Source of the DNA: Rhynchopus sp. YZ270_cl-10
Lineage: Eukaryota
Direction: 5' to 3'
NCBI GenBank assembly: GCA_964035575.1
Contig: OZ037847.1
Coordinates: 1,302,001 to 1,366,000 of the forward strand
Length of the DNA stretch: 64,000 nucleotides
The position numbers and the translations under genes are program-made. The stretch's first letter is position 1, and each line of letters starts with the position of its first letter. Of the stretch, positions 392-57,058 are shown in pieces. The notes under the pieces are model-generated. The model had not been told where the DNA came from and ran no database searches. It saw only the letters and a program-made list of their open reading frames with translations.

Positions 392-515
392 CGAGAGCAG
401 GCGGCAGCGCGCGTTACGCTCTCCCTCCCACCACCCTCCCCCCCCTCTTGTTTTTTCTTCCCCCCCCCCACGGCCCTCCCCGCCAAAACACACATCCGCC
501 GAGTTTTCTTCCGAA

Positions 516-1511: not shown

Positions 1512-3217
1512 GTTGGTTGTTCCGGGGGTTGGACGGGTACCCGTTGGGGGAGTATGTGCGTGACGAGGGGGATGACGTGGTGGAGGCGGATGTTGAGACG
1601 TCTGCGGCGCCTCCGCATGTGCTCTTGGATGATGTCGCTGGGGTCTGGGGTGGCCCATCTGGGGTGAAGCGGCAGGTGCTTGACTCATTCCCGGCGGGTC
1701 TGATTGATTTGGGGGCGCTCCGCCGACTGGTACCGGCGAAGGCCAGGTTGTTCGCAATGCTTGACGACATTGCGACTTTCCGTGCGCAGCTGACGGGGTC
1801 TGGGGTGTCGATGCCGGGCCCGCCCTCCAAGCTCCAGGACGGCATGTTGGCGGCGTGCGTGGGTAGTGGGGTTTTGCGCACGGAGAAGCGAGCTTTCCCG
1901 TCGGTGTGTGGGCTGTCTGTGTTTCCGCTGGCGAAGACGAACGGCAAGATGCGTCTCATCGTTGACGCACGGCCGTTGAACACGGCGATGCACTCCCCGC
2001 CAAAGTTCAGCCTCCCTACACCATACGAGCTGTCGGAACTCATCCTACGCGGGGGCGCTACGCATGCAGTCGTGGCGGATTTCAAAGGGTTTTTCTGGCA
2101 ATTCCCTTTGTCCGCGGAGGTGGGGCAGTTTTTTGGTGTGCGGCAGGGTGCGCGTCGCATGCAGCTTACCCGCATGGCGATGGGGTGGTCGTGGGCGGCG
2201 GTGATTGCGCAGGAGACGTCGCTGGGGCTTCTCGGGGATATGGCGGGTGTGTGTGCTGCTGCGTGGATAGACGACAACCTCATTTTGGGGAAGTCGGCGG
2301 GTGAGGCGTCTGCGCGGCTTCGGGGGTTCCTGCGCAGAGCGGACGAAGTTGGCGCTGAGGTGAACCGCGAGAAGTCGACGCTCACTCCGGTACAGGTGTG
2401 TACCTACGCAGGGATTGAGTGGGATTTGCGGGGGCGCAGAATGCGGCTGCCGGGGGAGTGGCGTCGGAAGGCCCGTGTCGTGATGGACGTATTGCTGTCG
2501 GCGTCGGGTCCCTCGCTGCGCGAAGTGTGGAAAGGTATCGGGGCCGTCATCTGGGCGACGTATGCGATGGGGGACCGGTTCTGCGGGGTGCCGGACATGT
2601 TGGCGTGGATTCGTGCGCGGGGCGCCGAGGTGTCTGCGGGCGCGATTGACTGGGACGACCAGGTGCAGATCTCTGCGGGCATGCGGACGGACTTGTGTGT
2701 GTTTGTGGAGCGGCGATTGGTGCCGGATGTGTGGCGCGTCCCCAGGTGGAAGCTGTCGCCGGAGGAGGGGTGTGACACGGTGGTGTGGTCGGACGCGTGC
2801 CCCGAGGGGTGGGGGTTTATTGTGCGGACGCTTGCTGGCGGGCGCGCTTTCAGGAAGTGGGGCACGTGGTCCACGGTCGAGGATATTTTCATTTTGGAGT
2901 TGCGGGCGATGGCCTGGGGCGTGCTGCATGCTGTACGTGGTGGCGCCCGCAGGATTTTGGTGGTGGGGGACAACGCCGCGGTGGTTGCTGTGCTGGAGCA
3001 GGGCCACTGTGCAGTCAGGTTAGGGAACACGGTCTTGGAGCGCCTGTTTCGGGTCACTGACGGGGCGGGTGCGGGCATGTTGTCGCGCTGGATCGCGACG
3101 GACCGTATGCCGGCGGACGAGCTGTCGCGATGGGGTACCGCTGGGCAGGACTGGGCCGACCCCCCGTCGGACGGCGTGGTGGTCGACGGTGGCGGTTTTA
3201 TGTGGTCGGACGAGTGA
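1512..3217 (+). CDS. Reverse transcriptase / RNase H (start uncertain; frame is open from 644)
   Basis: RT motifs MRLIVDAR, ADFKGFFWQF, MAMGWSWA, WIDDNLI; DIRS-type RNase H motifs WSDAC, IFILELRA, GDNAAV, PADELSR. Confidence 0.92.
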
Positions 3218-3498: not shown

Positions 3499-4131
<633 letters not shown>

Positions 4132-14174: not shown

Positions 14175-14984
14175 ATGGCCACCGAACACACCCCGCTCAA
14201 CGGAAAGAGGCTTTCCCGCCGCCACTCCAGCCGCAGAAGCATCCAGTTTGTTGACGACCACATTGACATGGATGGGTCCTTCAAGGCCGCAGTGTTCGGG
14301 TTCAACGACGGACTGAGCGCAAACACCTGCCTGATGATCGGAATGGGCTCCGGTGGAATGAACCCTGCCTCCGTGATTGCCTCGGGACTTGTGGGTCTGA
14401 TCGCAGGCGCAGCAAGCATGGGTGCAGGTGAGTGGATCTCCACAACACTGAACAACTCATACGAGAAGAACGAGATCGAACGTGAGGCCGACCACCTCCG
14501 CCACCATGAGGAGATGGAGGACAGGAACCTTGCGGAGAAGCTGCGTGAGGAGTACGGCTTTTCGCAGGAGACAATCAACCATGTTTTCAAGGACATGTCG
14601 ACGGGTAACAAAGAAAAGGACTTTGACATGAAGCTTCGCCTGAACGTGAAGATGGAGATGGGTCTTGACGTGGACGACGAGAGAGGCAACGCGATGAAGG
14701 CGATGACGTTCATGATGACGGCGTTTGCCCTTGGTGCGGCTGTGCCTCTGTTCCCTTGGTTGCCCATGTGGTTCCCGGGAGCGCACCTGGCGATGTGGCT
14801 GTCTGTGCTGTGCTCGCTGATTGCTTCGATTGTGGTGGGTATGCGTCTTGCGCAGGAAACCGGTGAGCCTATGATCGCGACGGCCGCGAGACAGGTGTGG
14901 GCTGCGACTGTTGCGATTGTTTCCGTGTGGGGTCTGGGTGCTCTCTTCCAAATGGTGACCGGTGTTGCTGCCCCTGCAGCATAA
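14175..14984 (+). CDS. VIT1/CCC1 family iron/manganese transporter, copy 1
   Basis: AAVFGFNDGLSAN, GLIAGAASMGAGEWIS, Glu-rich cytosolic segment, three C-terminal TM helices. Confidence 0.92.
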   Translation: MATEHTPLNGKRLSRRHSSRRSIQFVDDHIDMDGSFKAAVFGFNDGLSANTCLMIGMGSGGMNPASVIASGLVGLIAGAASMGAGEWISTTLNNSYEKNEIEREADHLRHHEEMEDRNLAEKLREEYGFSQETINHVFKDMSTGNKEKDFDMKLRLNVKMEMGLDVDDERGNAMKAMTFMMTAFALGAAVPLFPWLPMWFPGAHLAMWLSVLCSLIASIVVGMRLAQETGEPMIATAARQVWAATVAIVSVWGLGALFQMVTGVAAPAA

Positions 14985-15752
14985 ACAGACACCTCACTCC
15001 AAAAAGGAAGGAGACCCCAACCAAAGTGTGACCGTGTTCTGTGTTGTTTGCAAGCTGATGTTATTGATTTTTCTAGTTATTTTTCTGCACTCAAGGTGTC
15101 AACGCTTTTTTTTTTTCTATTATTTGCTTTGTTTTTTTCCCGGGAGTGAAGCGGTGGCAAAAGCGTTCTGCAGTGGGCAATGCGAGGATCTGATACACAT
15201 AAGGCTTTGTCGCCGTACTAAGTAACTATCCTTTCGCCCCCCCGCTTTTCCACTGCGCACTGCTTTATTTTTTTTTTAGTTCTTTTTGTTTTCTGTATTC
15301 CCGCTCCCGCGAAGTCATCGCCGGATCTAACAAGTTCCACATGGTTTGTCTTCTTGGATGTGTCGTACGTGCGGCACATTCATATTTGTTCAAGTTTTCT
15401 TTATGTTACCCGTTTCAACCTGTGTGTGTGAGCACTGCAAGTTTGTGTGCCTCGTGTGCCGATTCTTCAAACGTAGTGTTTGTGCGGGCTTTTGGGGGCG
15501 GTGCGAGGTTATCCGCGAAAACACAAAAGCGCGTGCAATATTAGCGATGCGAAAATAACGAAAACCGAAGACGACCGAACCCAAGGCCCAATTGCTTTGG
15601 ACTCAAAAGGGAAACGACAAAAAACGTTGGACAAAGTAAAATGTGTAAAAAAGAGAACACACAACTTTTTTCTTGCTCAGCGCCACCTCACTTTATTTGC
15701 AACATCTGTATCAGTTATCACCAACTAAAAAAAACAAAAAAAACACACAAAA

Positions 15753-16565
15753 ATGGCCACCGAACTCACCCCGCTCAACGGAAAGAAGCTTTCCCGCCGC
15801 CACTCCAGCCGCAGAAGCATCCAGTTTGTTGACGACCACATTGACATGGATGGGTCCTTCAAGGCCGCAGTGTTCGGGTTCAACGACGGACTGAGCGCAA
15901 ACACCTGCCTGATGATCGGAATGGGATCGGCAAGTGGCATGACTCCATCCTCTGTGATTGCCTCGGGACTTGTGGGTCTGATCGCAGGAGCAGCAAGCAT
16001 GGGTGCAGGTGAGTGGATCTCCACAACACTGAACAACTCATACGAGAAGAACGAGATCGAACGTGAGGCCGACCACCTCCGCCACCATGAGGAGATGGAG
16101 GACAGGAACCTTGCGGAGAAGCTGCGTGAGGAGTACGGCTTTTCGCAGGACACCATTAACTCTGTTTTCAAGGACATGTCGACGGGCAACAAAGAACAGG
16201 ACTTTGACATGAAGCTTCGCCTGAACGTGAAGATGGAGATGGGTCTTGACGTGGACGACGAGAGAGGCAACGCGATGAAGGCGATGACGTTCATGATGAC
16301 GGCGTTTGCCCTTGGTGCGGCTGTGCCTCTGTTCCCTTGGTTGCCCATGTGGTTCCCTGGGTCCCACCTGGCGATGTGGCTGTCTGTGCTGTGCTCGCTG
16401 ATTGCTTCGATTGCTGTGGGTGCACGCCTTGCACAGGCCACTGGTGAGCCTATGATCAACACTGCGCTTAGACAGGTGTGGGCTGCGACTGTTGCGATTG
16501 TTTCCGTGTGGGGTCTGGGTGAGTTGTTCCAAATCCTGACCGGCATTTCTGCCCCTGCAGCATAG
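15753..16565 (+). CDS. VIT1/CCC1 family iron/manganese transporter, copy 2
   Basis: Near-identical tandem paralog of 14175-14984 with the same motifs. Confidence 0.92.
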   Translation: MATELTPLNGKKLSRRHSSRRSIQFVDDHIDMDGSFKAAVFGFNDGLSANTCLMIGMGSASGMTPSSVIASGLVGLIAGAASMGAGEWISTTLNNSYEKNEIEREADHLRHHEEMEDRNLAEKLREEYGFSQDTINSVFKDMSTGNKEQDFDMKLRLNVKMEMGLDVDDERGNAMKAMTFMMTAFALGAAVPLFPWLPMWFPGSHLAMWLSVLCSLIASIAVGARLAQATGEPMINTALRQVWAATVAIVSVWGLGELFQILTGISAPAA

Positions 16566-25670: not shown

Positions 25671-27211
25671 ATGCGCCACATGGCGACGTTAGCAGCAGTG
25701 GCCTGCACACTGTGCTGCAGCGAGGTGGCAGGGCTGAGCATCCCTGGTGACTGCACGGTGCTGCCCGCATCTGGGTCGCAGACACACAAGGAGGGCTCGT
25801 CGCAGTACTCAAACGACGAAGACCTGTGCTGGAAGGTGCCTGCATGCGGGACAGGGTACGAGGTGACGGTATCGTTCTCGGCTTTCGATGTGGAGTCTGG
25901 GTACGACTTTGTGACGGTGTGGGCAGACAACGGGGCGGGTGTGTACAGCCAGGTGTCGCAGACGTCTGGGACGAGTGCCCCTGCAGATGCGAAGAACGGG
26001 GCACACGCAGTGGCGGTGCAGTTCAAGTCTGACTATAGTGTGACGCGCGCCGGGTTCACATTTGCGTGGAGCTGTGTTGCGACAGAGACGCCGCCGCCCA
26101 CACCTGCACCCACAGCCGTGCCAACAGCCGTGCCGACACCTGCCCCCACAGCAGTGCCATGCCCACCACGTGTGCGCCACGCGTGGTCGCAGCTGTCGTG
26201 TGCAGACCGTGAACACTACATTGCGGCTGTGGCAGCACTGAAGACGCAGAAGCGGTCTGTGTACGACGCTATTGAGATGTCGCACGTGACGAACTCAGAG
26301 ATTGCACACGGGACGTCTGCGTTCCTGCCGTGGCACAGGTGGTTTGTGCTCGGGTACGAGAACGCCCTGCGGTCGCTGCCTGGGTTCGAGTGTGTGACGG
26401 TGCCGTACTGGGACGGGAGCAGGACATGAGCCTGCAGACGTGTGTGTGGAAGATGAACACGTTTGGGCCGACAAACCCGACTGGGACGACGGACAGCGCA
26501 ACGTCCTGTGTGGACAAGGGTGTGGCTGCAGGGTGGACCACGTCGCAGCCGGGGAACCCATGCCTGAAGCGCCACAGCCCGATCTTTGGTGGGGGTCCGT
26601 ACGGGGCGGCGAACGTGGGGAGGGAGGTTGTGGCCACAGACTACGCGTCCTTCAGCGCAGGGTACGAGTCAGGAGCACACCAGTCTGTGCACTCGTACAT
26701 TGGGGAGACGATGACGACGAGCTGGAGCCCTGCAGACCCGCTGTTCTTCCTGCACCACGCAAACATCGACAGAACGTACGCCCTGTGGCAGGACTACCAC
26801 GGCTACAGCGCCGTTGCTGCAGGGAGCCTGACGACAACACACTACGAGGCGAGGTACGAGGGCGGGGATGTGGCGGACGTGGCGCTCGATGCCACCCTGC
26901 CCTTTGCGCACGATGCCACGGGCACGACGAGCGAGTACCTCGCTGGAAGCATCAGCGCCCGCAGCCTGCACAACATCCAGGACATGCCTGGGGGCAACAG
27001 CTACACCTACGGGGTCGACGGGCTGGCACGCTTTATTGTGGCCGAGTACGCGACGGCACCCGTGGGGGGCTGGACGTGGCTGGAGGAGGCGTCTGCCGCA
27101 CTCACCCCTGTCACGTGCTGTGGTGACGGCAGCATCGATGACGGTGAGCAGTGCGACGACGGGAACACTGTTGATGGGGACGGCTGCTCCGCCACGTGCA
27201 TGAGCACATGA
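25671..27211 (+). pseudogene. Secreted CUB + tyrosinase + Cys-rich protein with a 1-nt frameshift at about 26414 (pseudogene or sequence error)
   Basis: Signal peptide; CUB (FSAFDVESGYDFV, FKSDYSVTRAGF); CuA AHGTSAFLPWHR; CuB HQSVH...DPLFFLHHANIDR; C-terminal CGDG..EQCDDGN..DGDGCSATC; one T inserted after 26414 restores PYWDW. Confidence 0.88.
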
Positions 27212-28441: not shown

Positions 28442-31400
28442 ATGGGCTTTGTGATATGCCTTGCAACGGATTTGTTGGGGCGGAAGGTGAACTTTGAGGT
28501 TACGTTGCCTCAGTTGCAACCTACGCTTCGTGATGTGGAGCACGAGGCGGATGTTGTGTTTAATGCAGAGTACGCGCGACTCGGCGTCGCACAACGCTTC
28601 GCCGCACAACGCTGGCAGGTCTACGACGAAACCCGCCAGAAATGGACCTCCCTCCGCACCTCCAACCAATCAACCCTCCTCCGCCCGGCCTGCCAGGTCT
28701 ACGCCCTGCAACGTGGCTGGGAGCATGAGATGCAGGCCCCCATCCCAAACCCTACTGCGCTGCCTCACTTCACCGCACCCCTCTCCCCTCAATACATCTC
28801 CGAATCACCACAGCGTGACTATTCTGTACCGCGCAATGAGGTGGAGCTGCAACCTCCGCAAGAAGGCACAGAAGGCGACCTGGAAGAAGCATATGAACAG
28901 CCAATGAGCGATGAAGGCAAAGTTGCCGCACTCTTCCACGAATTGAACGTACGTGGCAACGGTGCGTTGGAGATGGAGGAGTTCCGCCGTGGCCTCACCC
29001 AGCTTGATATGCCGTTCACCGCAGAGCAGTTGCGTGAAGTCTTCGTAAAGGCAGATGAAAACGCAGATGGACGGCTCAGCTTTGACGAATGGCGTCGCAT
29101 GCTTGCAAATCACCCAAACCTTCGCGATAGTCTTTACTTCAGAAGTCGAGAGTATGTCAAACGATGAGTAAAAAAAGGGGTGGGTTCCGTATTACATGAT
29201 AGTGTCAGGTGGTGGTTTAATAACAAAAAGAGCGCGTGAGGGGGGAAAAGTTCTGATTTTTTGTGGTGTTCGTGAATTTCCCACAATGCTACGAAATAGC
29301 GGGGGGGTCATGAATACCAATGTGTCTTCTATTTGATGTTGCATCTTAAGACGCAGTGATTACCAACCTTTTATTATTGCAGGTTCTGGGAAGATGCAAA
29401 GCTTCGTCAGGACATGAAGTCCTCGACAGACCAGCTGGAGGCGCTTCAGCACCGCGAGCAGCTAACACGGGTATGTGCCTTTTGTTTTTTTTTCATCCAA
29501 AAACCCCCTTTTACCCTATCCTACAATACCACCTCAACCCTTCCCACAGAATGTATGGCAGTCAGTGCAGGACGATCTGCGTGCTTTAACTGAGCGAGTC
29601 GAGACACGGCGACAGGTATAGCCTCCCCTCATAACCCCCCACCTCCCTCCACAGCGAGCATTTTATAACAAGGTGACTAAACACAGAGAGGGTTGGGTTC
29701 ATCGTATAAACTTTTCTCTTTTCTTTTATGTTCTGCAGAAATGGAGGTTTGGCGATATTCCTCTATCAGTATATTTGGTTCCTTCTGGCGTCGACCACGG
29801 AACTGCCGCTCTATATTTGTGTTTCGTGTTTCGTGCACAAAAGGAAACCCTTGAGTTTTACATCAAACCCCCTTTCCAGAATACGGAACGCCTGGCAGAG
29901 TTGGTTGCACAAAGAGAGCGTGCGTCGGAGGCTGCGCTGAGTGACGTGGCGCATTCACAGAGACATCTGCAGGAGATTGAGACTGAGGCGGCGAAGGGGA
30001 GAGAGGCATGTGAGCAGCGCCATGGTGTGTACACAACGCTTGCGACGGACGTAAAGGCGCTTGAAGAACGTCTCGTGCACGCACAAACGTCTGCCGCAGA
30101 GGTGCTCAGGGAAGAGGACATCGCTGCCGCGCAGAATGCCGAGACAAAACACCAGGCAGACGCCTTCCGGAACAAAACCATTGAAAAGGCAGGCATCTTC
30201 CGCCAAGCGCACGAAAGGGAGCGGGAGGCGAAGGAGCTGATCACTGCTGCGCAGGATGAGACCTCGGTATGAAAAATCTTTGTCAAATTTTTAACCCTCC
30301 CTCCACAGAGGCTGGAGCACAGCATCAGTGTGTGCGATGGGAATATTGAGAATGTGACGCAGGCAGCGTTTGTGGCGGAAGGTGAGTTGGCGCGTGTCGC
30401 GTCTGAAGTGGCAGTGGCGACGGAGACGTGCCAGGGTGTGCTGCAGGTAGTGGCAGCGGCGCGTCTGGAGGAGGAAGCGTCCATGCGTACGGCGCTAGAG
30501 GCACAGCGCAAGGTCGATGCTGCAGAAGAGGCGATCCGCACGCAGGCGGACGCACTCACACACCTCGCAGAGCAAAGGGAGCTTGCAGCAAAGAACGAAC
30601 AGCGGATAATAGACCAAGAAATCCGCCTCCGAATGCAGCGGCAGTCTCTTGAGCAAAATGTATGAGTTTTTTTCCCCCATGAGGTGGAATTTTTCAGTGC
30701 TCTCAAGATCCTCCACGTAGGGGAGGATATTTCCTCCAGGGGCTTTTTTTTTTTTTTTCCAGGCTTTTTTGGTGGAGGATTTCCTCCATTTTTTTTTTTT
30801 TTTTGGCGGGCTCGGGTGGAGGATTATCCTCCTAGGGGTTTTATAGTGGGGGGTCACTTTGTCTCCCCCGAGGGAGCCAATATTTTCCCGAGCCTGTATG
30901 CACCGTCCAGGGCTGCACCTTAAAAAAAATTTGCTTGCGGCGCCATTTTCATTTTTTGCTACTCAAAAAAAGGGTTCGTTGAGTGATTCTGTAGTGTAAA
31001 AGGAAGCATTTTTACACCGTACCCCAATTTTTTTTCGCCTGCGGCGCCATTTATATTATTTTTTTGCTCCGCAAAAAAATAGTTGGCAATGTCTTTGGAT
31101 ACCCTTGTATTTTGCAGCCAAAAAATGCAACGTGACCAAAGCTGCAAAATTTTTGCCATTTAAAAAAAATTACCCGCCGTTGCATCAGCCCCTGCTTCTG
31201 GAAGACGTATTGGTTTTGTACGGTTCGTGGAGCGTACGGTGCAAGAGAAAGGATTAGATTTCCGTTTTTTGTTATCTCGCAAAATTGACCCGCCTCTCCG
31301 CTCTGTGGCTGTCAGGGAGGCGCGCGCGAAGCGCGCGACGACCGCTTGTTGCGGGGGAAAATTTTTTTTTTTGGGGGGTTTTTTTTGCAAAAACGAATCC

Positions 31401-38813: not shown

Positions 38814-41446
38814 ATGGTGTCGGTGAGAGTTTTGTTATGTTTGCAGGTTTCGGTTTCGTTAGCGACAGTGGACTTTACTGGGTTTGGAGTGCTTGACGCC
38901 ATGCGGCGACCACAGCCACAGCAACGGGCGTCCTCTGCACGAGACGGCGAGGTAGAATTTTCCGACGGAATGCGTATCAAGACCTTTGTGAAGGAGCACT
39001 CTGCCTGCGCACCGAAGGCCTGCTACTGCAAGAATGTGGGCGACGTTGTCAACAATTTCCAGGTACCCCCTTTGGACGTTACATGCACCGAGGCTGATGT
39101 GTTGACCGACGCCAAGCTTGCGTACATCAATGAAATGGTGGCAGACGCTGTTGCCTTCTTGAGCAAGGCACTGCGTGTCAAGCACCCCATCAACAACGCG
39201 CTTGTCACCGACCGTTGTGGCACCATCGCGCAAGGTGTCTTCGCTGGCGCCACGGCGGACCCCGAACACTCCACAACCGGCCTCCCCGACACCGACCTTG
39301 TTGTCTACATCACCGCAGTGCCCGCACCAGGCGCCACCCAAGCGTGGGCAGTATCGTGCCAATGGGAGACAAACTCAGACAAAGCCCTGTCCGGACGTCC
39401 CGTTGTTGGTCTCATGAACATATCACCGCGTCTCTTAGAAGTGTCCATGAAGTCGGCCAAGCCGGTGGAGTATCAGAACTCTGTGAACACTGCGATCCAT
39501 GAGCTGATGCACGTCTTGGGGTTTACCAGTGAGTACTTCAACCAGGAGGGGAACCAGGAGTGGTTTAACACCTCGCATGGGAAGGCGTTGGAGACGGACG
39601 CTAATGGGGATGTGCGTATGGTGACACCGAAGGTGGTGGAGAAGGCGAGGGAGCATTTTGGGTGTCCGACGTTGTCAGGAGTGTTGCTTGAGAACCAGGG
39701 GGATGCGGGCACGAGTGGCTCGCATTGGGAGAAGCGCATCCTCGGGAACGAAGTCATGACGGGTGTGCAGACACCAGAGCTGACGGTGATGTCGCCTATC
39801 ACCCTCGCGTACTTCGAGGACACCGGGCTGTATGAAGTGGACTACAGCATGGCAGGCAACCTCATCTGGGGCAAGGGCCGCGGCTGCGACTTCGTCAACC
39901 TCCCCTGCGACAAGACACAGATCTCCGACCCCCTCCAGGAGTTCTGCTTCCCCCCAAACCTCGACTTCAGTACATTTAAGCAGGGCTGCACGCCCTCGCT
40001 CCTCACATTCGGCGGCTGCAACGTCATCCTCCACAAAACTGACCCCCCAGTGGCGAAGTACCAATACTTCAAAGAGGACGCAACCGCAGGAGGTGCGGTG
40101 ACGTACTCTGACTACTGTCCTTTCCACAGTGCGGAGGTGCAGTGCACCGACCTCGATCTTGACGGGGTGGCCTGCCAGAAGCTCGACCAGACGGCATGCG
40201 ATGCGAGCGTGTACTGCTACTATGACGGAAGGACGTGTCTGTCAAAGTCGCTGGATGTGAAGGGGTCGTTCTATGGGTCCGGCAGTAGGTGTTTCAACGC
40301 GCAGGTTCACGTCCGTTCGCTTACTGTGACGGATGACCGGACGGCGCGGTGCTTCAGGGTGACGTGTGCACCAGATGGGAACAGCTACTATGCGGAGGTG
40401 GGGTATTCTTCGATAGCGTTGACTTCGTCGCAGGCGCCCAGGGTGTACTGCAACAGCACAACAAGCTTGGGCGTGGCAGATGACAACTTTGTGAAGCAGT
40501 ACGACGGAGACGTGCCGTGCCACCAGCCCAGCAGAGTCTGCAGTGATGCAACCCTCCCGCGTGCGTCCTTCACAATGCCGAGCCTCGCAGCAACGGGTCA
40601 GATCGCGGCCACAAGCGCACCCACCGAAGACAGCAGCAGCGACGGCGACAAGATGCTTCTGATCATCATCATCGCTGCTGGATCCGGTGCAGTCGTGCTC
40701 TGCATAATCTGTTACGTCCTGTATGTCCCCAACCCCATCCCCATCCCCAAAACCAACCCCATTTTTCCTACAGCATCTCGCGCTGCTGCGCTTCCAAAGG
40801 AGCCAAAAACAACACCTGGCAGAAGGACCCCCTGGTCCCCCAACGCGCCTCCTCCCCAAACGTGAAGAAGACAAACCCCAAGAATGCCATGACTGCACAG
40901 CAAATGTACAACAACAGCAAACCCAACTCACCGCCGGCGTTCACAAGCCCGCAGAACCAGGGGAAGCACAACCCGCACCAGAAGCGTTTTGACAACAACC
41001 CTGGACCGGCAAACGGCCATGCGTACAACCCACCGGCACAACAGTTCCACCCGCCGCCATCTCCTCCTTCGAAGAACGCGATTGGAGGGGGGCACCAGCA
41101 GTACAGGAAGGTGACTTCACCTACGCCAACCTTTTCAAGCCCGTTGACACCACCGTTGAACCCTTTGGACATGACACAAAACAGCAACGTACCGTCCCTC
41201 CTTGGAACAAGCACTGGAGCGGTGTCCCCCTACGGACGTACCACAAGCCCCAACCCACGTGCCCTGGGACGCACTCCTTCCCCGCAACCCTTCAACAACG
41301 CTCTCAGCTCAAACTTCGGGGCAAACCTCGGAGGTAGCGCAAAAGACCCACTTGGTGGTGGTGGACCAAGAGATCCTCTTGGGGGTGGTGGTGATGGCTT
41401 CGGACAGCCGCTCCTCCCCGGGAACAACACTGCCACTATATGTTAA
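38814..41446 (+). CDS. Leishmanolysin/GP63-like M8 metalloprotease with TM helix and Pro-rich tail; intron 40721-40773
   Basis: AIHELMHVLGF, SHWEKRILGNEVMTG, TLAYFEDTGLY, WGKGRGCDF, DYCPF; the 53-nt GTATGT..CTACAG intron joins the TM segment in frame to ORF 40862-41446. Confidence 0.92.
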
Positions 41447-44241: not shown

Positions 44242-46936
44242 CATACTTGGACCGCCCGAAATATATTTCGGGCATTTCGGGCGAATTAAGGGCGGATTTC
44301 GGGCGATTTTGTGCGCCCGAATTCGCCCGAAAACGCCCGAAGTCGCCCGAAATGCAGATTTCGGGCGAATTCGGGCGCTTTTTCCTTAGTGAAAACCGAT
44401 TAGGTAGGGTTCTACTCATTTTCGCAAAAAACTTTTTATATTTGGAAATATTTGATGTCAAATCTGTCAAAATAAGCAATAATCGAAAACTTTTGTACAC
44501 CTGAGTGCACTTTGGAGGCCCATGAGAATCACCACCAAATCACGGGTTTTCTGACTATCATTTGCTTATTCCCACCCAAAACACACTATGAACCGGGTTT
44601 TCGGGGGCTCCCTAAAACATGTTAAAAAATCGCAAAAAAGTTCAAAAAGTGTTTTTTACCTTTGCCAAAACTGAGATACAAAGGGGAAAAAAATGTTTTT
44701 TCCCAGCAAAAACTGAGAAATAGCCGGGAAAAAAATGTTTTCGAATGTTTTAGGGACCCTCGGACTACGGACCCTCCCGCCCCACTTTCCAGCTATTTTG
44801 ACTTATAGAAAGGGACTCTCGCAAATTTTTTTTTCCGCCTATATAGGGCTAATTTCGACGATTTGAGGCCGTTAAAACCAGAATTTGACACTTTTGAGCA
44901 TCTGTGGGGGTCTAAAACGTGGTTTCGCGCACCCGAAATTTCGTGGTTTTTACTTGGGAAAATGCCCATTTCAACCCAAATTTTCGGTTTTTCTGGCCCG
45001 AAAGTCGAAAAAAAAAGCGCCGGGGGGCTTCGCCCCCCGAACCCCCCATTGGGGGGCTTTGCCCCCCAAACCCCCCACTGGGGGGCGTAAAGCATACGCC
45101 CCCCAGACCCCCCTATGCAATTGAGGGCCTGCGGCGCAGTTCGGAGCTCTTGGTCATACCGAACTGGAATGTTAAATGTGGATGTTATTGTGCTTGCAGC
45201 GTTGTTCCTTGCCATCATGCGGCATCAGACCTCATGCAGCAGAACACTACGGTGTCCAGCATCGGCAGTGCGTACACATCGGTGAAGGATTTTATCGACG
45301 TGACGTGGAACACGGACGACGTCTGGCATTTACGGGTTCAGTACAAGTGTGAGCAGTGCGAACGCACTAACGATTTTGCGACGAGGCGGCAGCGATACCT
45401 TTCTCCTCTTCCCGGTGCAGGGTGGATCCTTATTTTCGCTGAAAATCCGAGATTTTTTTTCGTTTTATTTTCCTCTCCTGTTTTTGAGATTTTCCCGCGC
45501 AGGCCTGACGCTAACTTTCGGGTTTTTAGGAAATCCTGGGGGGTTGATGATTTGTCCGCGAGCGCAGCGAGTCGAAAAATTGAGTGACCGTCGGAAAAGA
45601 AAACGAACAAGCAGGTTGGGACCTGTACTGAGGCAGAATAGTGGTGTTTTTTTACACATCTCATCTATCGCAGAACTAAACCCCAGGGAAATATAGGTTT
45701 TGGGGGTTTTCGCTGAAACTCGGTCATTACTCGGTCGAGCCCAACCCAGCTCGTTCGGGCCTCCGGCAGAACGTGAGAATTCCTCGATTATCCTACTGCG
45801 GAGTTCGACACTACATTGATATTTGCAATGGGCACACGCAGTATCAGTAATCTCAATACATTTACAAAAGAAACGGCGGTCATGGCACCCATGGCGAAGC
45901 AACGGTACGCAACATTTCGAAAAATTGCGCTCAAATTGCACGTTTTTAGTGCCAAACTATGTCACGCGAAGGGTGGGTTGCAAGCTTGCGCCGAAGGCGT
46001 ACGGTGCACTACTTTTATTCTCTCGCCATACTGCATGCTTCCTTTTCCTTCGGCGTTTGACCCCAATTAACTCGCGTTCTGTACTGCGCCCTCTGATAAG
46101 GGTAGTACTTTCTAGAAACATTCTGAAGTCTGTTTTTGACACACAATCGGGGTGGGTGGGCCATAATTTGCTCAACCAGTCGAAAATTGGGATTTTTCTG
46201 AAATTTGCATTGTGCCCAGCAAAAATCGTCGTTTTTTTGAAGAATTTTCCAAAAAATATGCTATACCCCCTATGACTGGACCCAACTCCCCTCACTATTT
46301 TTTCCCTCTTTTTTGACCCAGAAACCACGCGCTTTTTGAACCTTTTTATCCAAAATACTCCTTTTTAGGGAGCCCCCTCCACTATTTTTTCGTATTGCAG
46401 GGTGAATTTTTGTGAATTTTCGGGTCACAGGGTGGTTCTGACCCATTCTGGGGGGTGTTTCGGGCCTGTAGTTGCTCAGGAGATGCCCAAAAACGTGAAA
46501 AATCGCCTTTTTACGTTTTTAGTAGTATTTTAGTGTAAATTGTTAGGGAAATCGGTTTTATACGTGGCTGCTAACAGAGCTGCACTCATATAAGTTGGGT
46601 TCTACTAGGAATTTTTGCTCAATTTTTTTTTCTTTGAACAAATTTTGTGCCAATCTTTCAAATAAAGCGTTAGATTTTTACACTGGTGGCATGCTTCCCA
46701 GCACACATAAGATACTGGTTGTGCGCCCGAATTCGCCCGAATCTGCCCGAAATCGCCCGAATTCGCCCGAAATGTGCCCAAATTCGCCCGAAATGCGCCC
46801 GAATTCGCCCGAATTACGTATAAATTCCCTTTAAAACGCCCGAAATATATTTCGGGCACATTTCGGGCGCTCGGGATCCGCGCCCGAAAAATTCGCCCGA
46901 ATTCGCCCGAAATATATTTCGGGCGGTCCAAGTATG
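44242..46936. mobile_element. 2.7-kb non-autonomous TIR element with 6-bp TSD and subterminal TTCGCCCGAA arrays
   Basis: Perfect 32-bp TIR CATACTTGGACCGCCCGAAATATATTTCGGGC; ATAAAC at 44236-44241 and 46937-46942; GCCCGAA arrays at 44254-44377 and 46725-46925. Confidence 0.9.
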
Positions 46937-47720: not shown

Positions 47721-48767
47721 TTGTGCAAAAATATACAAACAAACTCAAAGGGCAGAGTTAGTACCCGCGAATTCAAAGAAGGAAACAAAAGGGTGTCAAA
47801 GGTTTTTTTTGAGCGAACCGTATTGGGCATCGTCTAGCATAACTCTATAAAGTAGAGAAAAGTGAGGATTTCGACACACCCCTTAAGAGTACTGTAAAAT
47901 ATGGGTGAATTTGCGAAAAGTTTAACCACTTTATCGAATCGACCCTACCACAGGCTGCGATTGCTCCGAAAATGCAAACCAAACACGGTAATGGGAGGCG
48001 ATTAACTCTAGTCTGGACAAAACAATGTGTGGTCTGACCCCTTTGTCCACTCGCTCTTTTGTATTTATAATTTTAAAATGATATGAATGGGCGCTCTGTG
48101 GTGGTGATTTAACGCATACAGAGGCTTGGGGCTACAACCCTTCACCAACCTTTCTGCACGAAGCGAACTCTCCACAGGAGATGGCTTGTTCATCTTGTTT
48201 TTGTTTTGATTTTTTTTTCTCCTTTTTTGCGATAACAGACTCGTTCAAAATGCCTCCCCCCTTATTTGTTTACGGAAACACTCAATGTCCCACCCCTTTG
48301 CATGAGATCGACTGAGATGCGTTTTAGCACGTTTCAAACTACTATTTGTTTGGTTTTGGGTACACTACCTCCGCATGAATGAGTACCGCACCGATGCTGA
48401 CCCGACCCATTTCAGCACGTTCGCGTAACCCCCCCTGCTTCCTCGAAAACGGAAAGAAAAACACCCATTCCCATGGTGCACACGAAATCCCCAAAACAGA
48501 CCCCCTTGCCCCCCTTTTGATACACCTCCCTCCCCTCTAGGCATACACTCGATGCGAGTCGCATTATCGCACAACTCTGGTCTGGCGAAACATTATCGCT
48601 CATTATCGCACATTCTCACACGATTCTCCGTGGTCAAGTACGTCGAAAATACACCCCTCACCGGGGAATGAATTTTTTTTTACCGCCCCCCTCGAAATGA
48701 AAACCCCAAATCCTAGAAACCCTGTTTCTCCCAAAAAAAAAAAAAAAATTGAGTCACACACACAAAC

Positions 48768-50132
48768 ATGACAGTTCTGCGTTCTGTGCTGGCTGGGCTG
48801 GTTGCGGCGGTGTGTGCTGTCGCGGATGTGCCTGGTGGGCGTGTGGTGCTGCACAGGCGTGAGGACGGCTCTTCTGGGTACCGCCTGCGTCTCGGGAACA
48901 ACTCGACTGCTGCAATCACAAGGCACCACCTTGAGTATGCGCGGGAGGTGATGCGGGAGAAGAGCAGGGCGAGGAAGCAGCGGCAGCGTGATGGGCATGC
49001 TCTCGCGGAAGAGGACTCGGCAGCATGTGTAATTGACAACGGGGGTACAACGATCAAAGCCGGTTTTTCTGGAGACGACGCGCCACGTGCGGTGTTCCCA
49101 AGCATTGTTGGACGTCCCAGGCACCAAGGTGTGATGGTGGGGATGGGTCAGAAAAACGTGTACGTAGGAGACGAAGCCCAAGCAAAGCGTGGAATCCTTG
49201 GAATAAACTACCCTATTGAGCATGGGATTGTGACGAGCTGGGACGACATGGAGGCGGTGTGGCATCACACGTTTTACAACGAGCTCAGGGTTGCACCAGA
49301 GAGACATGGTGTGATGCTGACCGAGGCCCCGCTGAACCCAAAAGCAAACCGTGAAAAGATGACACAGATCATGTTTGAAACATTCAATGTACCGTCGTTT
49401 TACGTTTCCATCCAAGCAGTACTTGCACTCTACGCGTCGGGACGTACCACAGGAGTAGTGGTGGACTCTGGTGGGTCCGTTACACATGTTGTGCCCATCT
49501 ACGAAGGGCACGCGTTGCCGCACGCTGTGCTGAGACTGGATCTTGGAGGACGTGACGTCACCGAGTATATGCAGAAGTTGCTGAGCGAACGTGGGTACTC
49601 GTTCACGACGAGTGCTGAAAAAGAGATTGTGAGGGACATCAAAGAGAAACTGGCATTTGTTTCAACCGACTTTGCTGACGATCTCGATCGTGCAGAAGAA
49701 AGCAGTGATCTGGAACAGGACTACGAACTTCCCGACGGACAGGTCATCACTGTCGGTAGCGAGCGCTTCAGGGCACCTGAGATTCTCTTCAAACCTAATT
49801 GGATTGGGTTGGAGCAGGAAGGACTTCACAAGCTTATTTTTAGCAGCATCATGAAGTGCGATGTGGACATCCGCAAAGAATTGTACGGCAACATAGTATT
49901 TGCAGGTGGGAACACAATGTTTGCAGGAGTTGCGGAACGTACGCAGAAAGAACTAAAGAACCTGGCACCAGACTCGATGACAGTCAGGATCATTGCCCCT
50001 CCTGAGAGGACGTACTCAGCGTGGATCGGAGGATCTATCCTTTCATCCCTTTCCTCGTTTCAGGAAATGTGGATTTTGAAGGAGGAGTATGACGAATCTG
50101 GACCGAGCATTGTGCACCGGAAGTGTACTTAG
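48768..50132 (+). CDS. Divergent actin with about 79-aa N-terminal signal peptide/propeptide extension, copy 1
   Basis: Full actin body ([65 protein letters not shown]) in frame behind [19 protein letters not shown]. Confidence 0.93.
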
Positions 50133-51083
50133 GTGTTTTTCAGTACTGTAAACTGTTTTACAATTTACTTGCGCGGCACAGCCCACGCTAAGAAGTACCT
50201 AAAAACATGCTATTTTCAACTGTAAGCTGCCAGTAGGGAATTACTGGGGGGAAAGAAAACGGACTTCGCGAAGCTATGTGTTGTGAGTTTTAAGCAGACT
50301 GTCAAAAAGCTTCGCATTTCTTTCCACAGCTTTTTGTTGCTACTTTTTCCTCCCTTTTGATTGTGTTATTTCATTTTTTTTTCTTTGCTTTTTTGAACCT
50401 TGGAAACACACCAGCTGCGTAGTGTACAGGTAAAAGTGGCACCCTAGTAGAGCTGCGATATCAACACACTGCAGTTGGTCCTTTTACACAAAATAATAAA
50501 AAGGCGTAAAACGGGTGCAGCTCCTTTGCTGCTTTCTTGGTTCACTTCCCTCTCCACGCCTCCAAAACATGACAGCCACACCCCGTTTTGCGTGTTTTTT
50601 TTTTTTTTTTTTCCTTTTTTCTTTTTTTTTTTTACTGGTGGATAATGCTCCATCTTTCGATTGAAATTTATATCTTAAACTTTTTACTGGGTCTCCGAGG
50701 AGGTACTGCGACTCTTCCTTTGTTTTTGTTGTTGGTCTACAAAGTGGGCTACCACACTACTGGTGTAGTCGAATCGACCCTACCACATGCTGGGATTGCT
50801 CCGAAAATGCAAAACAAACACGGTAATGGGAGGCGATTAACTCTAGTCTGGACAAGACAATGTGTGGTCTGACCCCTTTGTCCACTCGCTCTTTTGTATT
50901 TATAATTTTAAAATGATATGAATGGACGCTCTGTGGTGGTGATTTAACGCATACAGAGGCTTGGGGCTTGTACAACTCTTTACCAAACTTTGTGTACGAA
51001 GCGAACTCTCCAGAAGATGGCTTGTTCATCTTGTTTTTGTTTTTGTTTTTCTTTTTTCCCCTCTTTGCTTTATTTATTTGTTT

Positions 51084-51866
51084 TGTTTCGCCACCACGAG
51101 TCCACACTTCTTCGGGAACGCTTTCTTCTTGAGTGCATGACCCGCGCCGAACTTGCCAATCTCACCCGCGCCTTCTCTTCCACACACAACCTTACCCCAA
51201 AACTCCTTACCGCCATCATCGATGAATACTGCAAAAAGAAGAACAAAACGGCATCTGTTACGGCCGAGGTGCGTTCTTCTGTTCCGTGCATTGCCATCCT
51301 TCTGAACAGAGCGGTGCACATGAATCAAGAAAAATTGGTCGAACGGCTGTTCCGCATATTCAAAGCAGCATCTACGAGGAAATATAAGCACACTACATTG
51401 CTTGCCATTCTTCACGCCATGACTCTCATAAAGGACGCAGAGCTGGGTGAAAGGGTTGTTCTCCGTATCACTGACATACTAGAAGGGCCTTTCACCTTAC
51501 GAGAGAGCAGTTATTTATTTGCAAAGCTATCTATAGTGATGCCGGGACATGCTGTACAACTTCGGCTTCTTGATGTCATAAGGAAAAAGCTTGCGATCCC
51601 GCAACGGGTAAAGCCGCTTCTTATTGAAATGTTCTTAGAGAAGAAAGGGGTGCAGGGTATAGCTGAGTGGAGGTTTGGTCCGAAGGGAGGTGCACCTCCA
51701 CCTACACCGATAGCACCTAGAACACCCGACGTACCAGATCCTACTGCGCTGTTGGAGGATGCGTTGCAAAAGCACAGTGCACATGACATAGCGGACCTGA
51801 CGGTGCTTGCAGAAGGTTTGCAAAACGGAACAACCGGTTTTGACCGCAGAGACATGGCAGATGTCG
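51084..51866 (+). pseudogene. 783-bp internal duplicate fragment of the gene at 54930-57058
   Basis: Nearly identical to 55267-56049; lacks both ends of the gene. Confidence 0.88.
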
Positions 51867-52165
51867 CACCGCAGACATTGTGTACTCTTTTCCCCCACCC
51901 CATTAACTGCATGTTGCACAGTCCCATGTACAGTTCACCTAAAGACCCTCAGCACCCCTCCCTGATGCCTTTTCATCAGCCTCCCCTCAAGAAAAAGCCT
52001 ACTATTTGACTCATAAGCCCTGTGGCCTGTAGGGAGACGCGCGCGAAGCGCGCAGGCGAGCGTTCTCACCGGGGGAAATTTTTTTTACCGCCCCCCTCGA
52101 AATGAAAAACCCAAATCCTAGAAACCCTGTTTCTCCCAAAAAAAAAAAATTAGTCACACACAAAC

Positions 52166-53524
52166 ATGACAGTTCTGCGTTCTGTGCTGGCTGGGCTGGT
52201 TGCGGCGGTGTGTGCTGTCGCGGATGTGCCTGGTGGGCGTGTGGTGCTGCACAGGCGTGAGGACGGCTCTTCTGGGTACCGCCTGCGTCTCGGGAACAAC
52301 TCGACTGCTGCAATCACAAGGCACCACCTTGAGTATGCGCGGGAGGTGATGCGGGAGAAGAGCAGGGCGAGGAAGCAGCGGCAGCGTGATGGGCATGCTC
52401 TCATGGAAGAGGACCCGGCAGCATGTGTAATTGACAACGGCGCTACAACGATCAGAGCCGGTTTTTCTGGAGACGACGCGCCACGTGCGGTGTTCCCAAG
52501 CATTGTTGGACGTCCCAGGCACCAAGGTGCAATGGTGGGGCTGGGTCAGAAAAACGTGTACGTAGGAAACGAAGCCCAAGCAAAGCGTGGAGTCCTTACA
52601 CTATCATACCCTATTGAGCATGGGATTGTGAAGAACTGGGACGACATGGAGGCGGTGTGGCATCACACGTTTTACAACGAGCTCAGGGTTGCACCAGAAA
52701 AACATGCTATGCTGCTGACCGAGGCCCCGCTGAACCCAAAAGCAAACCGTGAAAAGATGACACAGATCATGTTTGAAACATTCAATGTACCGTCGTTTTA
52801 CGTTTCCATCCAAGCAGTACTTGCACTCTACGCGTCGGGACGTACCACAGGAGTAGTGGTGGACTCTGGTGGGTCCGTTACACATGTTGTGCCCATCTAC
52901 AAAGGGTACGCGTTGCCACACGCTGTGCTGAGACTGGATCTTGGAGGACGTGATGTCACCGAGTATATGCAGAAGTTGCTGAGCGAACGTGGGTACTCGT
53001 TCACGACGAGTGCTGAAAAAGAGATTGTGAGGGACATCAAAGAGAAACTGGCATTTGTTTCAACCGACTTCGATGACGACCTCGATCGTGCAGAAGAAAG
53101 CAGTGATCTGGAACAGGACGACGAACTTCCCGACGGACAGGTCATCACTGTCGGTAGCGAGCGCTTCAGGGCACCTGAGGTTCTCTTCCAGCCTCATTTG
53201 ATTGGGTTGGAGCAGGACGGACTTCACAAGCTTATTTTTAACAGCATCATGAAGTGCGATGTGGACATCCGTAAAGACTTGTACAGCAACATAGTATTTG
53301 CAGGTGGGAACACAATGTTTGCAGGAGTTGCGGAACGTACGCAGAAAGAACTAAAGAACCTGGCACCAGACTCGATGACAGTCAGGGTCATTGCCCCTCC
53401 TGAGAGGAAGGACTCGGTGTGGATCGGAGGATCTCTCCTTTCATCCCTTTCCACGTTTCAGGAAAAGTGGATAACGAGCGAGGAGTATGACGAATCTGGA
53501 CCGAGCATTGTGCACCGGAAGTGA
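52166..53524 (+). CDS. Divergent actin with the same N-terminal extension, copy 2
   Basis: Paralog of 48768-50132; ends IVHRK-stop (TGT to TGA). Confidence 0.92.
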
Positions 53525-54929
53525 ACTTATTAGGTGTTTTTCAGTACTGTAAAGTGTTTTACAATTTACTTGCGCGGCACAGCCCACGCTAAGAAGTACC
53601 TAAAAACATGCTATTTTCAACTGTAAGCTGCCAGTAGGGAATTACTGGGGGGAAAGAAAACGGACATCGCGAAGCTATGTGTTGTGAGTTTTAAGCAGAC
53701 TGTCAAAAAGCTTCGCATTTCTTTCCACAGCTTTTTGTTGCTACTTTTTCCTCCCTTTTGATTGTGTTATTTCATTTTTTTTTGCTTTTTTGAACCTTGG
53801 AAACACACCAGCTGCGTAGTGTACAGGTAAAAGTGGCACCCTAGTAGAGCTGCGATATCAACACACTGCAGTTGGTCCTTTTACACAAAATAATAAAAAG
53901 GCGTAAAACGGGTGCAGCTCCTTTGCTGCTTTCTTGGTTCACTTCCCTCTCCACGCCTCCAAAACATGACAGCCACACCCCATTTTGCGCAGGGGTGGGC
54001 GGGCACATCCTGGTTTTAAATACGGAGTGCACTGTTGTTATTTTTAAAAAAGAACTTTGTTTCTTTTACTTTCAAAGACCCCATTATTACTTTTCTTTGC
54101 ACTTTTTTTCCACCCCTTTCTCTCTTATGTTTTCGCTTTCGCGTGCGGGACACTCGCCTCCCCACCCGGGCCACCTTTTTATTGAGGTGCTGTCTACATT
54201 ACCACATAAGAACAAAGATACGCTTTCTTGAGTTTGTGTTTTTTTTTTCTTCTTGAAAGATGTGTGCGTCCTTTATCACCTGTCATCTTTCTTTCTGTCT
54301 TCCCTTTTAAAACCCTCTGGTTGTCCATGAAGAGCTAAGGGTAGCACAATTAAAAATATTGTGTTGTGTGATGCGTGCGGAACTGATTTTTGGGGAGACA
54401 CTAAACACGATTTTTAATTGTGCTACTCTATTTAGAGTCTAGTATTTCGATTATTAGAGAATAGTTAGAGTTTTCGAAACTCTAATACTACCACCTGATT
54501 TTTCTTGTTCATCTTGTTCTTGTTTTGATTTTCCCCTAATTTTTTGTTTGCGATAACAGACTCGTTCAAAAATGCCTCCCCCCTTATTTGTTGTTTACGG
54601 AAACACTCATGTCCCACCCTTTGCATGAGATCGACTGAGATGCGTTTTAGCACGTTTCAAACTACTATTTGTTTGGTTTTGGGTACACTACCTCCGCATG
54701 AATGAGTACCGCACCGATGCTGACCCGACCCATTTCAGCACGTTCGCGTAAACCCCCCCTGCTTCCTCGAAAACGGAAAGAAAAACACCCATTCCCATGG
54801 TGCACACGAAATCCCCAATACAGACCCCCCTTTCTAGGGGAACCCCACACACACACCCTTTGTGAATCCTACACATTTTCCTTCCTTTTTTCCCCCATTT
54901 TTTATCGTTCATTTGGCCAACCCATTACG

Positions 54930-57058
54930 ATGACATGGCGAAGAGTTGCACCAGTGGACATGACGTCTGCACTGAAATACTTTGGCACAGCAAGGGTAGT
55001 GCACACACCTTTGGCAAACGCTGTAAGCTGCTTTGTTGCAGAACGGTCCGCACCTTACCAGGACGTGAGCACACTGGTCAACGTTTTGGGGGACATGCAG
55101 AGCAGTTCTTCGAACTTCCACCTCGACGAGAAAGTGTCAATGGTGGCAATACCAACACTCCTGACACATGCCACAAAACGCCATCCACAGTCGCACACCG
55201 ATGTCGTCCGATTCTTAGAAGGGGCAAGCAAGCTGAAGGATCATACCGGACATAACTGGTCAGATGTGTTTCGCCACCACGAATCCACACTTCTTCGGGA
55301 ACGCTTTCTTCTTGAGTGCATGACCCGCGCCGAACTTGCGGATCTCACCCGCGCCTTCTCTTCCACACAAAACCTTACCCCAAAACTCCTTACCGCCATC
55401 ATCGATGAATACTGCAAAAAGAAGAACAAAACGGCATCTGTTACGGCCGAGGTGCGTTCTTCTGTTCCGTGCATTGCCATCCTTCTGAACAGAGCGGTGC
55501 ACATGAATCAAGAAAAATTGGTCGAACGGCTGTTCCGCATATTCAAAGCAGCATCTACGAGGAAATATAAGCACACTACATTGCTTGCCATTCTTCACGC
55601 CATGACTCTCATAAAGGACGCAGAGCTGGGTGAAAGGGTTGTTCTCCGTATCACTGACATACTAGAAGGGCCTCTCACCTTACGAGAGAGCAGTTATTTA
55701 TTTGCAAAGCTATCTATAGTGATGCCGGGACATGCTGTACAACTTCGGCTTCTTGATGTCATAAGGAAAAAGCTTGCGATCCCGCAACGGGTAAAGCCGC
55801 TTCTTATTGAAGTGTTCTTAGAGAAGAAAGGGGTGCAGGGTATAGCTGAGTGGAGGTTTGGTCCGAAGGGAGGTGCACCTCCACCTACACCGATAGCACC
55901 TAGAACACCCGACGTACCAGATCCTACTGCGCTGTTGGAGGATGCGTTGCAAAAGCACAGTGCACATGACATAGCGGACCTGACGGTGCTTGCAGAAGGT
56001 TTGCAAAACGGAACAACCGGTTTTGACCGAAAAGATATGGCAGATGTCGTAGAGTATCTGTTAGTCTCCTGCTTTGCCATTTCCCTAGCAGAAACCCTTC
56101 CCTCAGAAACCCTTGAAAAGGTCCTAAAAATATCAGCAACCTGCGCAAAGTTGGGTTTCAGACTTCCGCCGCTTCTCTTCCAATTGGTTGAAATTGTTAA
56201 ATCCGGGAGGGATGTCTCGATTGAGTGTCTAAAGGTGTTGAGTCTTTCCGATACTCCGGTCATTGAATTGTTTGAACCGTTGTGTGAAGAATTGGAGGTA
56301 AAGGGGGGGTCTGAGGCTTCAGTTGTTTTGCATGTTTTGTTGCATCTGCAGAGGTTGGAACGGAAAGGTGTGTGTGTAGCGGGATGTGTTGCCAAGGTGA
56401 CTGCTGCCCTTCGTGCAAGCCTGCCACGTATTGTCCCGCGGATCGGTGCAGAGCTGCAGGGGAATAGCCTCAACGCAAATGCTTCGTTTCTGCTCCTCGC
56501 ATCGAAGGTCGCACAGCGCTGTACCGACCCAACCACATCGGACCTCTGCACCCAGCTGGCAGAGGCGGTGGGAAAGCGGGTTGCAAAGGACGAAGGCAGA
56601 TCATCACGGAATGCATATCTTCAACCTGCGTTTGTTGAAAATGTTTGTAAGGTATGCTCCCCCTTTTTCAAAAAAAAATTGATTACGATACCTTCGGATC
56701 CAACATGATCCCCACAACTGGGTGCAATAATTTAGCAACAAACAAAAATGGGAAAAAAAAGAACCAATCGAGATCAGTTCCCAGGGCTAGTCTGAAAAGG
56801 CCAAGAAGCGCACCCACACTACCTCGGTAGAGCGAAAGAGAACAGGACTGGTACCAAAGTAAAACAAAAATAATAAACCTCCCATAACAGGCGTTGCAGA
56901 AGCACGGCATCGACAACAGCCTTTGGTTGAAAAGACGCAGCCCACAGACAGAGCTTCAATGGGTCGCCAAGCAGAGCAAGGAAGATGACTTCCGAGACGT
57001 CCAACGCACCCTCAAGGAACGGCGCACACTGCAGGAGGTGATGGTGCGTGGGGTGTGA
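54930..57058 (+). CDS. Hypothetical Leu-rich, probably alpha-helical protein; exons 54930-56651 and 56891-57058
   Basis: Long ORF; AAG|GTATGC donor and TAACAG acceptor give an in-frame 56-codon last exon; no recognised motif. Confidence 0.75.

Follow-up and report, generated by a model that had tools for sequence, protein, structure and literature searches.

The tandem actin genes

Examination of a stretch of 64,000 nucleotides of contig OZ037847.1 (hereafter the window) revealed two tandem genes coding for actin-family proteins that carry an N-terminal leader. Copy 1 occupies positions 48768-50132 (+) and codes for 454 amino acids, and copy 2 occupies positions 52166-53524 (+) and codes for 452; an in-frame stop lies just 5' of each open reading frame (ORF). 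The Pfam Actin domain (PF00022) spans residues 83/85-453 with scores of 461 and 450 bits (cut-off 27, E-value 1e-135 or better), and an Rfam scan gave no matches. An extension of about 79 amino acids, in frame and identical in both ORFs, had been described in a first-pass annotation made from the sequence alone, and this description was exact: the first 237 nucleotides (79 codons) are the same in both copies, and the remainder differs by 55 nucleotides and 38 amino acids.

In copy 1, a predicted signal peptide (residues 1-19, according to the crude rule given below) is encoded at 48768-48824, an orphan pro-region (residues 20-79, folded by a single-sequence model) at 48825-49004, and an actin moiety of foraminiferan type without indel (residues 80-454; actin numbering is residue number minus 79) at 49005-50132, all on the + strand. 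The leader of copy 2 lies at 52166-52402 (+) and its actin moiety, which begins with a derived Met80 and has lost its last two residues, at 52403-53524 (+). Both genes belong to a duplicated unit of about 1.94 kb, present as unit A (48657-50592, +) and unit B (52065-53989, +), which are 95.9% identical. The interval between these units holds, at 51084-51866 (+), a truncated copy (98.9%) of the neighbouring gene 55267-56049, and this truncated copy is part of the rearrangement that produced the actin pair.

A third gene was found on another contig, of 1.57 Mb. Its product P0002 (an ENA protein of 454 amino acids) is identical to the window copies at 76 of 79 leader residues and at 89% over the whole protein. 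The leader-actin junction is therefore seen three times, with different sequences, on two contigs of 486 kb and 1.57 Mb. This recurrence speaks against an assembly chimera, an objection that the first-pass annotation had itself raised. The flanks of the genes are, in addition, common to neighbouring host loci. Of nine listed sequencing runs, seven contain part of the stretch (five of them, from two studies, at least half, and one is possibly its source); no RNA run containing it is listed, and none of these runs is used as support here.

A signal-like start followed by an orphan pro-region

The leader begins like a signal peptide, as had been proposed. It satisfies, well beyond chance, a crude three-part rule that asks for a positively charged n-region, a hydrophobic core free of charges and, at -1 and -3, small residues; the same rule is passed by 2 of 113 open minus-strand ATG frames, by 0.015% of nucleotide shuffles and by 0.075% of codon shuffles of the leader. 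Its 11-residue hydropathy reaches 2.68, against 2.29 and 2.12 for two secreted proteins of the window, a GP63-like protease and a CUB-tyrosinase, and none of 10 other actin-domain proteins with at least 40 residues before the first DNG motif matches it (maximum 1.91). A19 is one of four cleavage sites permitted by the rule, and residues 2-18 form a helix in a low-confidence full-length AlphaFold model (predicted local distance difference test, pLDDT, 31).

Modelled as a single sequence, residues 20-82 form three beta-strands and a long basic helix (mean pLDDT 83.7, predicted template modelling score 0.51). The N-glycosylation sequons previously noticed in the extension are two and overlapping, N44 and N45, and sit at the turn between strands 2 and 3 of this model. 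The basic run, previously read as an RxxR site for convertases, holds one minimal R69-K-Q-R72 plus dibasic RK and RR; the R-X-K/R-R form is absent.

No Pfam family matches the leader, and a search with residues 1-85 found two homologues among 370 candidates of 249-795 amino acids, namely copy 2 itself and P0002. The leader is also absent from JGI metagenomes (none of 598 pattern matches), from IMG/VR (none of 133), from Atlas and from PDB sequences. Two profile matches among 1.84 billion representatives turned out to be tandem-repeat proteins with single stretches of 24-25 bits and were rejected as summed noise. The best structural match of the pro-region (Z 5.3, root-mean-square deviation 2.7 over 62 residues, 6% identity, in a COMM-type comparison) lies below the chance range of the tool, and the best Foldseek E-value is 0.18. 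The idea that it is an aspartic-protease propeptide received no support from sequence searches. The predicted complex of pro-region and actin moiety scored 0.02, which gives no verdict. Finally, codons ending in A make up 3 of 79 in the leader versus 83 of 375 in the actin moiety (p 3e-5), a contrast expected if the two parts have different sources.

Translation start

The first ATG had been considered obligatory in copy 1 because this copy lacks a methionine at the actin start. That argument fails, since all three copies have an in-frame Met62 directly before the basic run (position 48951 in copy 1). A methionine at the usual actin start exists in copy 2 only, where two derived base changes have produced Met80; the residue is alanine in copy 1 and P0002. 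Trans-splicing within the leader, followed by a start at Met62 or at Met80 of copy 2, would give a cytosolic or nuclear protein resembling actin-related proteins (Arps), with the basic run acting as a nuclear localisation signal. Degenerate phosphate loops, which are also found here (see below), are typical of nuclear Arps. However, the AGs inside the leader before Met62 follow pyrimidine runs of 4 or less, versus runs of 8 for those 51 and 44 nucleotides upstream of the first ATG, and this AG scan, a weak test, found within the leader no acceptor better than the upstream ones. Such a start also leaves unexplained a conserved, open and codon-biased stretch of 61 codons with its signal-like beginning and its confidently folded domain. 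We consider it very unlikely, and the proteins are probably translated from the first ATG and enter the endoplasmic reticulum (ER). For comparison, 5' untranslated regions of Diplonema measure about 70 nucleotides (PMC10161547; here and below, statements on cited papers refer to the accessible parts of their text). A GTATG at 48935, inside the leader, was rejected as an intron start, the downstream sequence being about 50% G as compared with a ceiling of 12% G for the selected candidates; excising that segment in frame would in any case not remove the signal.

Host and origin of the actin moiety

Several features of the window bear on the identity of the host. Among ORFs of at least 240 amino acids, 19 of 23 lie on the + strand and the four others are shadows of + genes; genes of D. 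papillatum are likewise arranged in unidirectional clusters (PMC10161547). A scan of the window for short G-poor introns of the form GTATG..YAG (G at most 12%) gave ten candidates on the + strand and none on the other. The same GTATG is reported at 5' splice sites in Diplonemidae, and introns are scarce in kinetoplastids (PMC12621601). As an example, a leishmanolysin (GP63)-like protease gene at 38814-41446 (+), whose product has a signal peptide, a membrane segment and a long Pro/Asn-rich tail, contains a candidate 53-nucleotide GTATG intron at 40721-40773, and removal of one of the ten candidates restores its frame to 859 amino acids. Another gene (28442-29167, +) codes for a protein with a BILBO1 N-terminal domain (Pfam E-value 1e-5, below cut-off; PDB E-value 1e-8) and an EF-hand; it resembles the BILBOD family of D. 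papillatum, a species with 76 proteins carrying a domain of this type (PMC13615690). An Atlas search with the EF-hand protein yielded no taxon for the host. Because of the one-strand genes, the GTATG introns and the BILBO1-like gene, the host is very likely a diplonemid.

The actin moiety points elsewhere. The nearest single-domain actins are 79-81% identical to those of the window, without indel, and end in HRKCT, as does copy 1; all members among them that bear a taxon name are foraminiferan (Globobulimina, represented by G. turgida P0135, and Elphidium and Ammonia in one cluster). In a tree built on 41 of 42 rows, after a length filter had removed JGI117, the three genes group together (100/100, stem 0.23) within a 100/100 clade shared with foraminiferan actins; the set comprises no diplonemid actin and no named euglenozoan, cercozoan or endomyxan one. 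Twenty-seven columns were taken as diagnostic because three foraminiferan rows are distinct there from every one of the 15 non-rhizarian actins that bear a name. At these columns the three genes show the foraminiferan residue in 15, 14 and 15 cases and the outgroup residue in 4, 4 and 6. The approximately unbiased (AU) test rejects a grouping of these genes with one viral actin and three actins of the SAR supergroup (p 1e-7). Since Retaria and Endomyxa share one actin clade (PMC5455982, PMC3014934), the donor is best given as that clade. The combination of a diplonemid-like host and a foraminiferan-nested actin suggests a eukaryote-to-eukaryote transfer, and the gene was likely gained horizontally from the Retaria/Endomyxa actins.

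An assembly chimera, contamination by foraminiferan DNA or a native diplonemid actin convergent on the foraminiferan type could be invoked instead, given a metagenome-type assembly and a tree in which diplonemid actins are missing. The repeated junction and the host-like flanks described above speak against an artefact, the long derived stem is unlike any listed foraminiferan sequence, and 14-15 diagnostic residues are too many to converge easily, so that explanations of this kind appear extremely improbable. A partial foraminiferan-type actin, P0128 (ENA, contig of 620 kb), has its own changed second phosphate loop (P2) and T303N; it falls outside the window-gene group and may be an independent divergent copy.

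Remodelling of the actin fold

The first-pass annotation had placed these proteins in the frame of conventional actin, which is not appropriate, as they are of foraminiferan type with altered phosphate loops. Judged against 100 full-length relatives, neither of the conventional loops, DNGSG and DSGDG, is intact, and the altered sites are invariant in 99-100% of these relatives. Phosphate loop 1 (P1; 49035-49058, +) carries S14G in copy 1 or S14A in copy 2 and P0002, together with G15T and M16T, and has lost the sequon at Asn12; P2 (49464-49481, +) carries D157G and G158S in all three copies. These belong to a set of 22 changes common to the three copies, which also includes A181G, M299F, S300A and T303N. 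Six of the 22 pocket residues considered are among the shared changes (p 8e-4). Copy 1 keeps D11, K18, H73, Q137, D154 and H161; copy 2 has K18R and P0002 has D154E and H161Y, leaving D11, H73 and Q137 in all three. Threonine at 15 and glycine at 157 are the states of Hsp70, and ATP binding may for that reason be changed rather than lost. The altered P2 pattern had no match in JGI metagenomes.

Other changes concern the compatibility of the fold with the secretory pathway. Of 100 relatives, 99 have a sequon at Asn12; none of the three genes does, which leaves their actin moieties without any sequon, and cysteines number 2-3 versus 4-8 in relatives. Both losses would suit passage through the ER. 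Most of the D-loop and of the hydrophobic cleft (residues Y143, L346 and L349) is unchanged. In copy 2, a TGT>TGA nonsense change removes C374 and T375, making the protein two residues shorter at its C-terminus, and private changes include E167K, Y240D, Y337D and M355K.

Divergence of the copies

The ratio of non-synonymous to synonymous divergence (dN/dS) between the two copies is 1.08 (43 non-synonymous and 12 synonymous differences), versus 0.30 for a control pair in the same window, a tandem of VIT1-family transporter genes (14175-16565, +) under purifying selection. Differences are unevenly distributed, with none in the 237 nucleotides of the leader, 55 in the 1119 of the actin moiety and 3 in the 460 of the 3' flank. 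They are clustered (p 0.0006), and silent ones adjoin those that change amino acids (p 0.007). Such a distribution is what partial gene conversion that spares islands of divergence would produce, or else patchy exchange between these genes and unseen paralogues. The coding 1356 nucleotides hold 55 substitutions and no indel, and seven duplicated non-coding segments hold 86 substitutions and 21 gap openings. Private changes fall on invariant columns less often than expected by chance, both in the two copies (19 of 33, p 0.004) and in P0002 (5 of 25, p 3e-10), which suggests residual constraint on the actin moiety.

Part of this evidence would also fit a decaying or silent chimera, that is, a foreign actin placed behind a native secretory leader, perhaps once functional, whose window copies are now drifting. 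The dN/dS value, the early stop of copy 2, the rearrangement around the copies, with a truncated gene lying between them, and the radical copy-specific replacements at invariant positions (K336T, Y337D, Y240D, M355K, E167K) are all in its favour, as is the number of altered invariant columns, 34 and 41 out of 298, where relatives average 0.74. Yet three copies have come through a long stem without indel or internal stop, and their changes shun invariant columns, most strongly in P0002. Simple drift, moreover, would not leave the leader and the 3' flank far closer than the actin moiety, nor is it consistent with the clustering of differences and the pairing of silent with amino-acid changes. 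Decay of this kind is in our opinion quite unlikely.

Possible function

What is observed comprises the fusion and its third copy, the position of the actin in the tree, the pocket changes common to all copies, the open frame and the fast, patchy divergence. The interpretation we favour, with a probability of roughly 0.45, is that the product mimics actin and is secreted to act on prey or hosts among the rhizarians; the use of the first ATG, ER entry, processing, delivery and target are the parts of it that we infer. The signal-like start, the leader on a second contig, the acceptors upstream of the first ATG and the absence of the Asn12 sequon together with the reduced number of cysteines suggest that the proteins are probably routed to the secretory pathway in one way or another. 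A secretory pre-pro-actin, as suggested in the first-pass annotation, accordingly remains the best-supported reading; the argument from Met80 no longer holds, and the convertase site is minimal.

Under the mimic interpretation, an orphan leader of 79 residues would have been joined in frame to a foraminiferan-type actin after horizontal transfer into a diplonemid-like flagellate. The product would enter the ER, lose its signal peptide after about A19 and possibly its pro-region at the basic run, and once released it would disturb the actin of rhizarian prey or hosts. The kept D-loop and cleft could allow docking on filaments or binding to proteins of the profilin/cofilin type, and the changed nucleotide pocket, with copy-specific hits at R62, E167, Y169, K336 and Y337, would break the normal ATP-driven cycle. 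The mimic might thus poison filaments or sequester actin-binding proteins. Leader and flanks would be held similar by partial gene conversion as the actin surfaces diversify. D. papillatum is described as a predator of live microeukaryotes with a large secretome (PMC10161547). It is conceivable, as a more tentative scenario, that a predatory or parasitic diplonemid captured the actin of its victim, added a secretory leader and stripped features incompatible with the ER, obtaining diversifying dominant-negative weapons against foraminifera or related rhizarians.

The evidence for ER routing fits equally well a role that serves the cell itself, either as a scaffold in a lumen or at the surface (for example in extrusomes) or as a decoy for actin-directed toxins or nucleases. 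Extracellular functions of actin exist, through non-classical secretion (PMC4450071), and a transferred actin forms a new structure in Microcystis (PMC3254629). However, a scaffold should keep its contact surfaces, and here dN/dS between the copies is as high as stated and R62 is lost in P0002; for a protective decoy, the actin already encoded by the host would presumably be a simpler source than one of foraminiferan type. We regard such a role as unlikely.

A number of points weigh against a secreted mimic. Transcription, start site and secretion are predictions from sequence, and present-day contact with foraminifera and a route into the cytosol of another cell are suppositions. The acceptors upstream of the first ATG are weak, with pyrimidine fractions of 0.53-0.57 comparable only to those of the weakest control genes, and Met62 is an alternative start that would yield a product without signal. 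The tree lacks the named euglenozoan, cercozoan and endomyxan actins mentioned above, and its nearest rows, JGI119 and JGI126, bear no taxon name. Loss of S14 is equally explicable by decay of the pocket alone, and the dN/dS value fits decay as well as diversification. Copy 2 carries a nonsense change two codons from its end, and several private changes are radical. Non-coding indel rates are raised by homopolymers, and with 38 amino-acid changes a neutral gene would be free of stops 13% of the time. Finally, the argument from stop codons (10 expected, 1 seen) uses about 190 changes derived from model branch lengths, and with 60 changes p becomes 0.18.

Other elements of the window

Upstream of the actin pair, a gene-poor stretch contains short arrays of a 10-nucleotide CGCCCGAAAT-like unit at 44265-44353 and 46724-46827, in both orientations. 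A tyrosine-recombinase (YR) retroelement, which we take to be DIRS/TATE/VIPER-like, lies at 183-3217 (+); its recombinase ORF overlaps a reverse-transcriptase ORF with an RNase H-like tail, and a 146-nucleotide direct repeat is found in its region (3499-3644 and 3869-4014). At 4189-9462 (+) lies a gene coding for a multi-pass membrane protein of 1757 amino acids with a C-terminal class 3 lipase domain, with an intron candidate from 7020 within the open frame. The secreted CUB-tyrosinase is encoded at 25671-27211 (+) by two frames that overlap near 26426 with no obvious intron, pointing to a frameshift or a sequencing error.

Comparison with known actins

Few cytosolic proteins are as conserved as actin, and its transfer from one eukaryote to another is rare. 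By their sequence, the window genes belong to the actin family but depart from conventional actin in two features that define it, namely intact phosphate loops and a start near the fold. No signal-peptide actin and nothing relevant on the phylogeny of diplonemid actins was found in the literature, in a coverage that leaves out most subscription journals and all supplements. Likewise, no secreted or transferred actin was found in the accessible text of a 2024 review of actin evolution (PMC12050087), and nothing relevant in that of PMC12146513, PMC7052976 and bioRxiv 10.1101/2023.01.27.525846.

If secretion and the effector role are true, the system has no described counterpart. It would represent the first classically secreted actin and an effector of one eukaryote against another built from the target protein itself. 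It would also imply that the actin fold can pass through the ER after losing one sequon and a few cysteines, and it would be the molecular trace of an otherwise unrecorded interaction between diplonemids and rhizarians. The genes also provide a natural actin variant with rewired ATP loops that is open to direct tests, both in polymerisation assays and in Paradiplonema papillatum, which can be transformed.

The closest known proteins are the actins of foraminifera and of the Retaria/Endomyxa clade, of which two foraminiferan paralogues (actin1, actin2) have been described (PMC5455982, PMC3014934). The window genes resemble them in identity, absence of indels, the HRKCT end, diagnostic residues and membership of one 100/100 clade. 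They differ by the 79-residue leader, the changed P1 and P2 loops, the missing Asn12 sequon, fewer cysteines, a contig of euglenozoan type and fast amino-acid change.

Together with these relatives, three other systems invite comparison. Viractins of Imitervirales are actin-related genes in a foreign genome too, proposed to manipulate the host cytoskeleton; in contrast, they are viral and ancient, and the word 'signal' is absent from the accessible main text (PMC8850707). The possibility that the window genes are themselves viractins was rejected, as their flanks are shared with host loci, their leader is absent from viral contigs and the AU test rejects the grouping with the viral actin and three SAR actins. 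The one viral actin retrieved, L001 (62%), lacks a leader and falls outside the group of these genes; this divergent actin, encoded at 229-1344 of a giant-virus contig beside an AAA ATPase-like ORF, has altered phosphate loops of its own.

In Microcystis aeruginosa PCC 7806, a eukaryotic actin was similarly moved by horizontal transfer, along with profilin, and put to a new use. There, however, the recipient is a bacterium, the actin forms an intracellular shell, profilin is present alongside and no export leader is mentioned in the accessible text (PMC3254629). Finally, the extracellular cytoplasmic actin of insects, an immune factor, likewise acts outside the cell on other organisms, but it is an ordinary actin released without a signal peptide, whereas the window holds dedicated, divergent genes with a predicted classical signal (PMC4450071).

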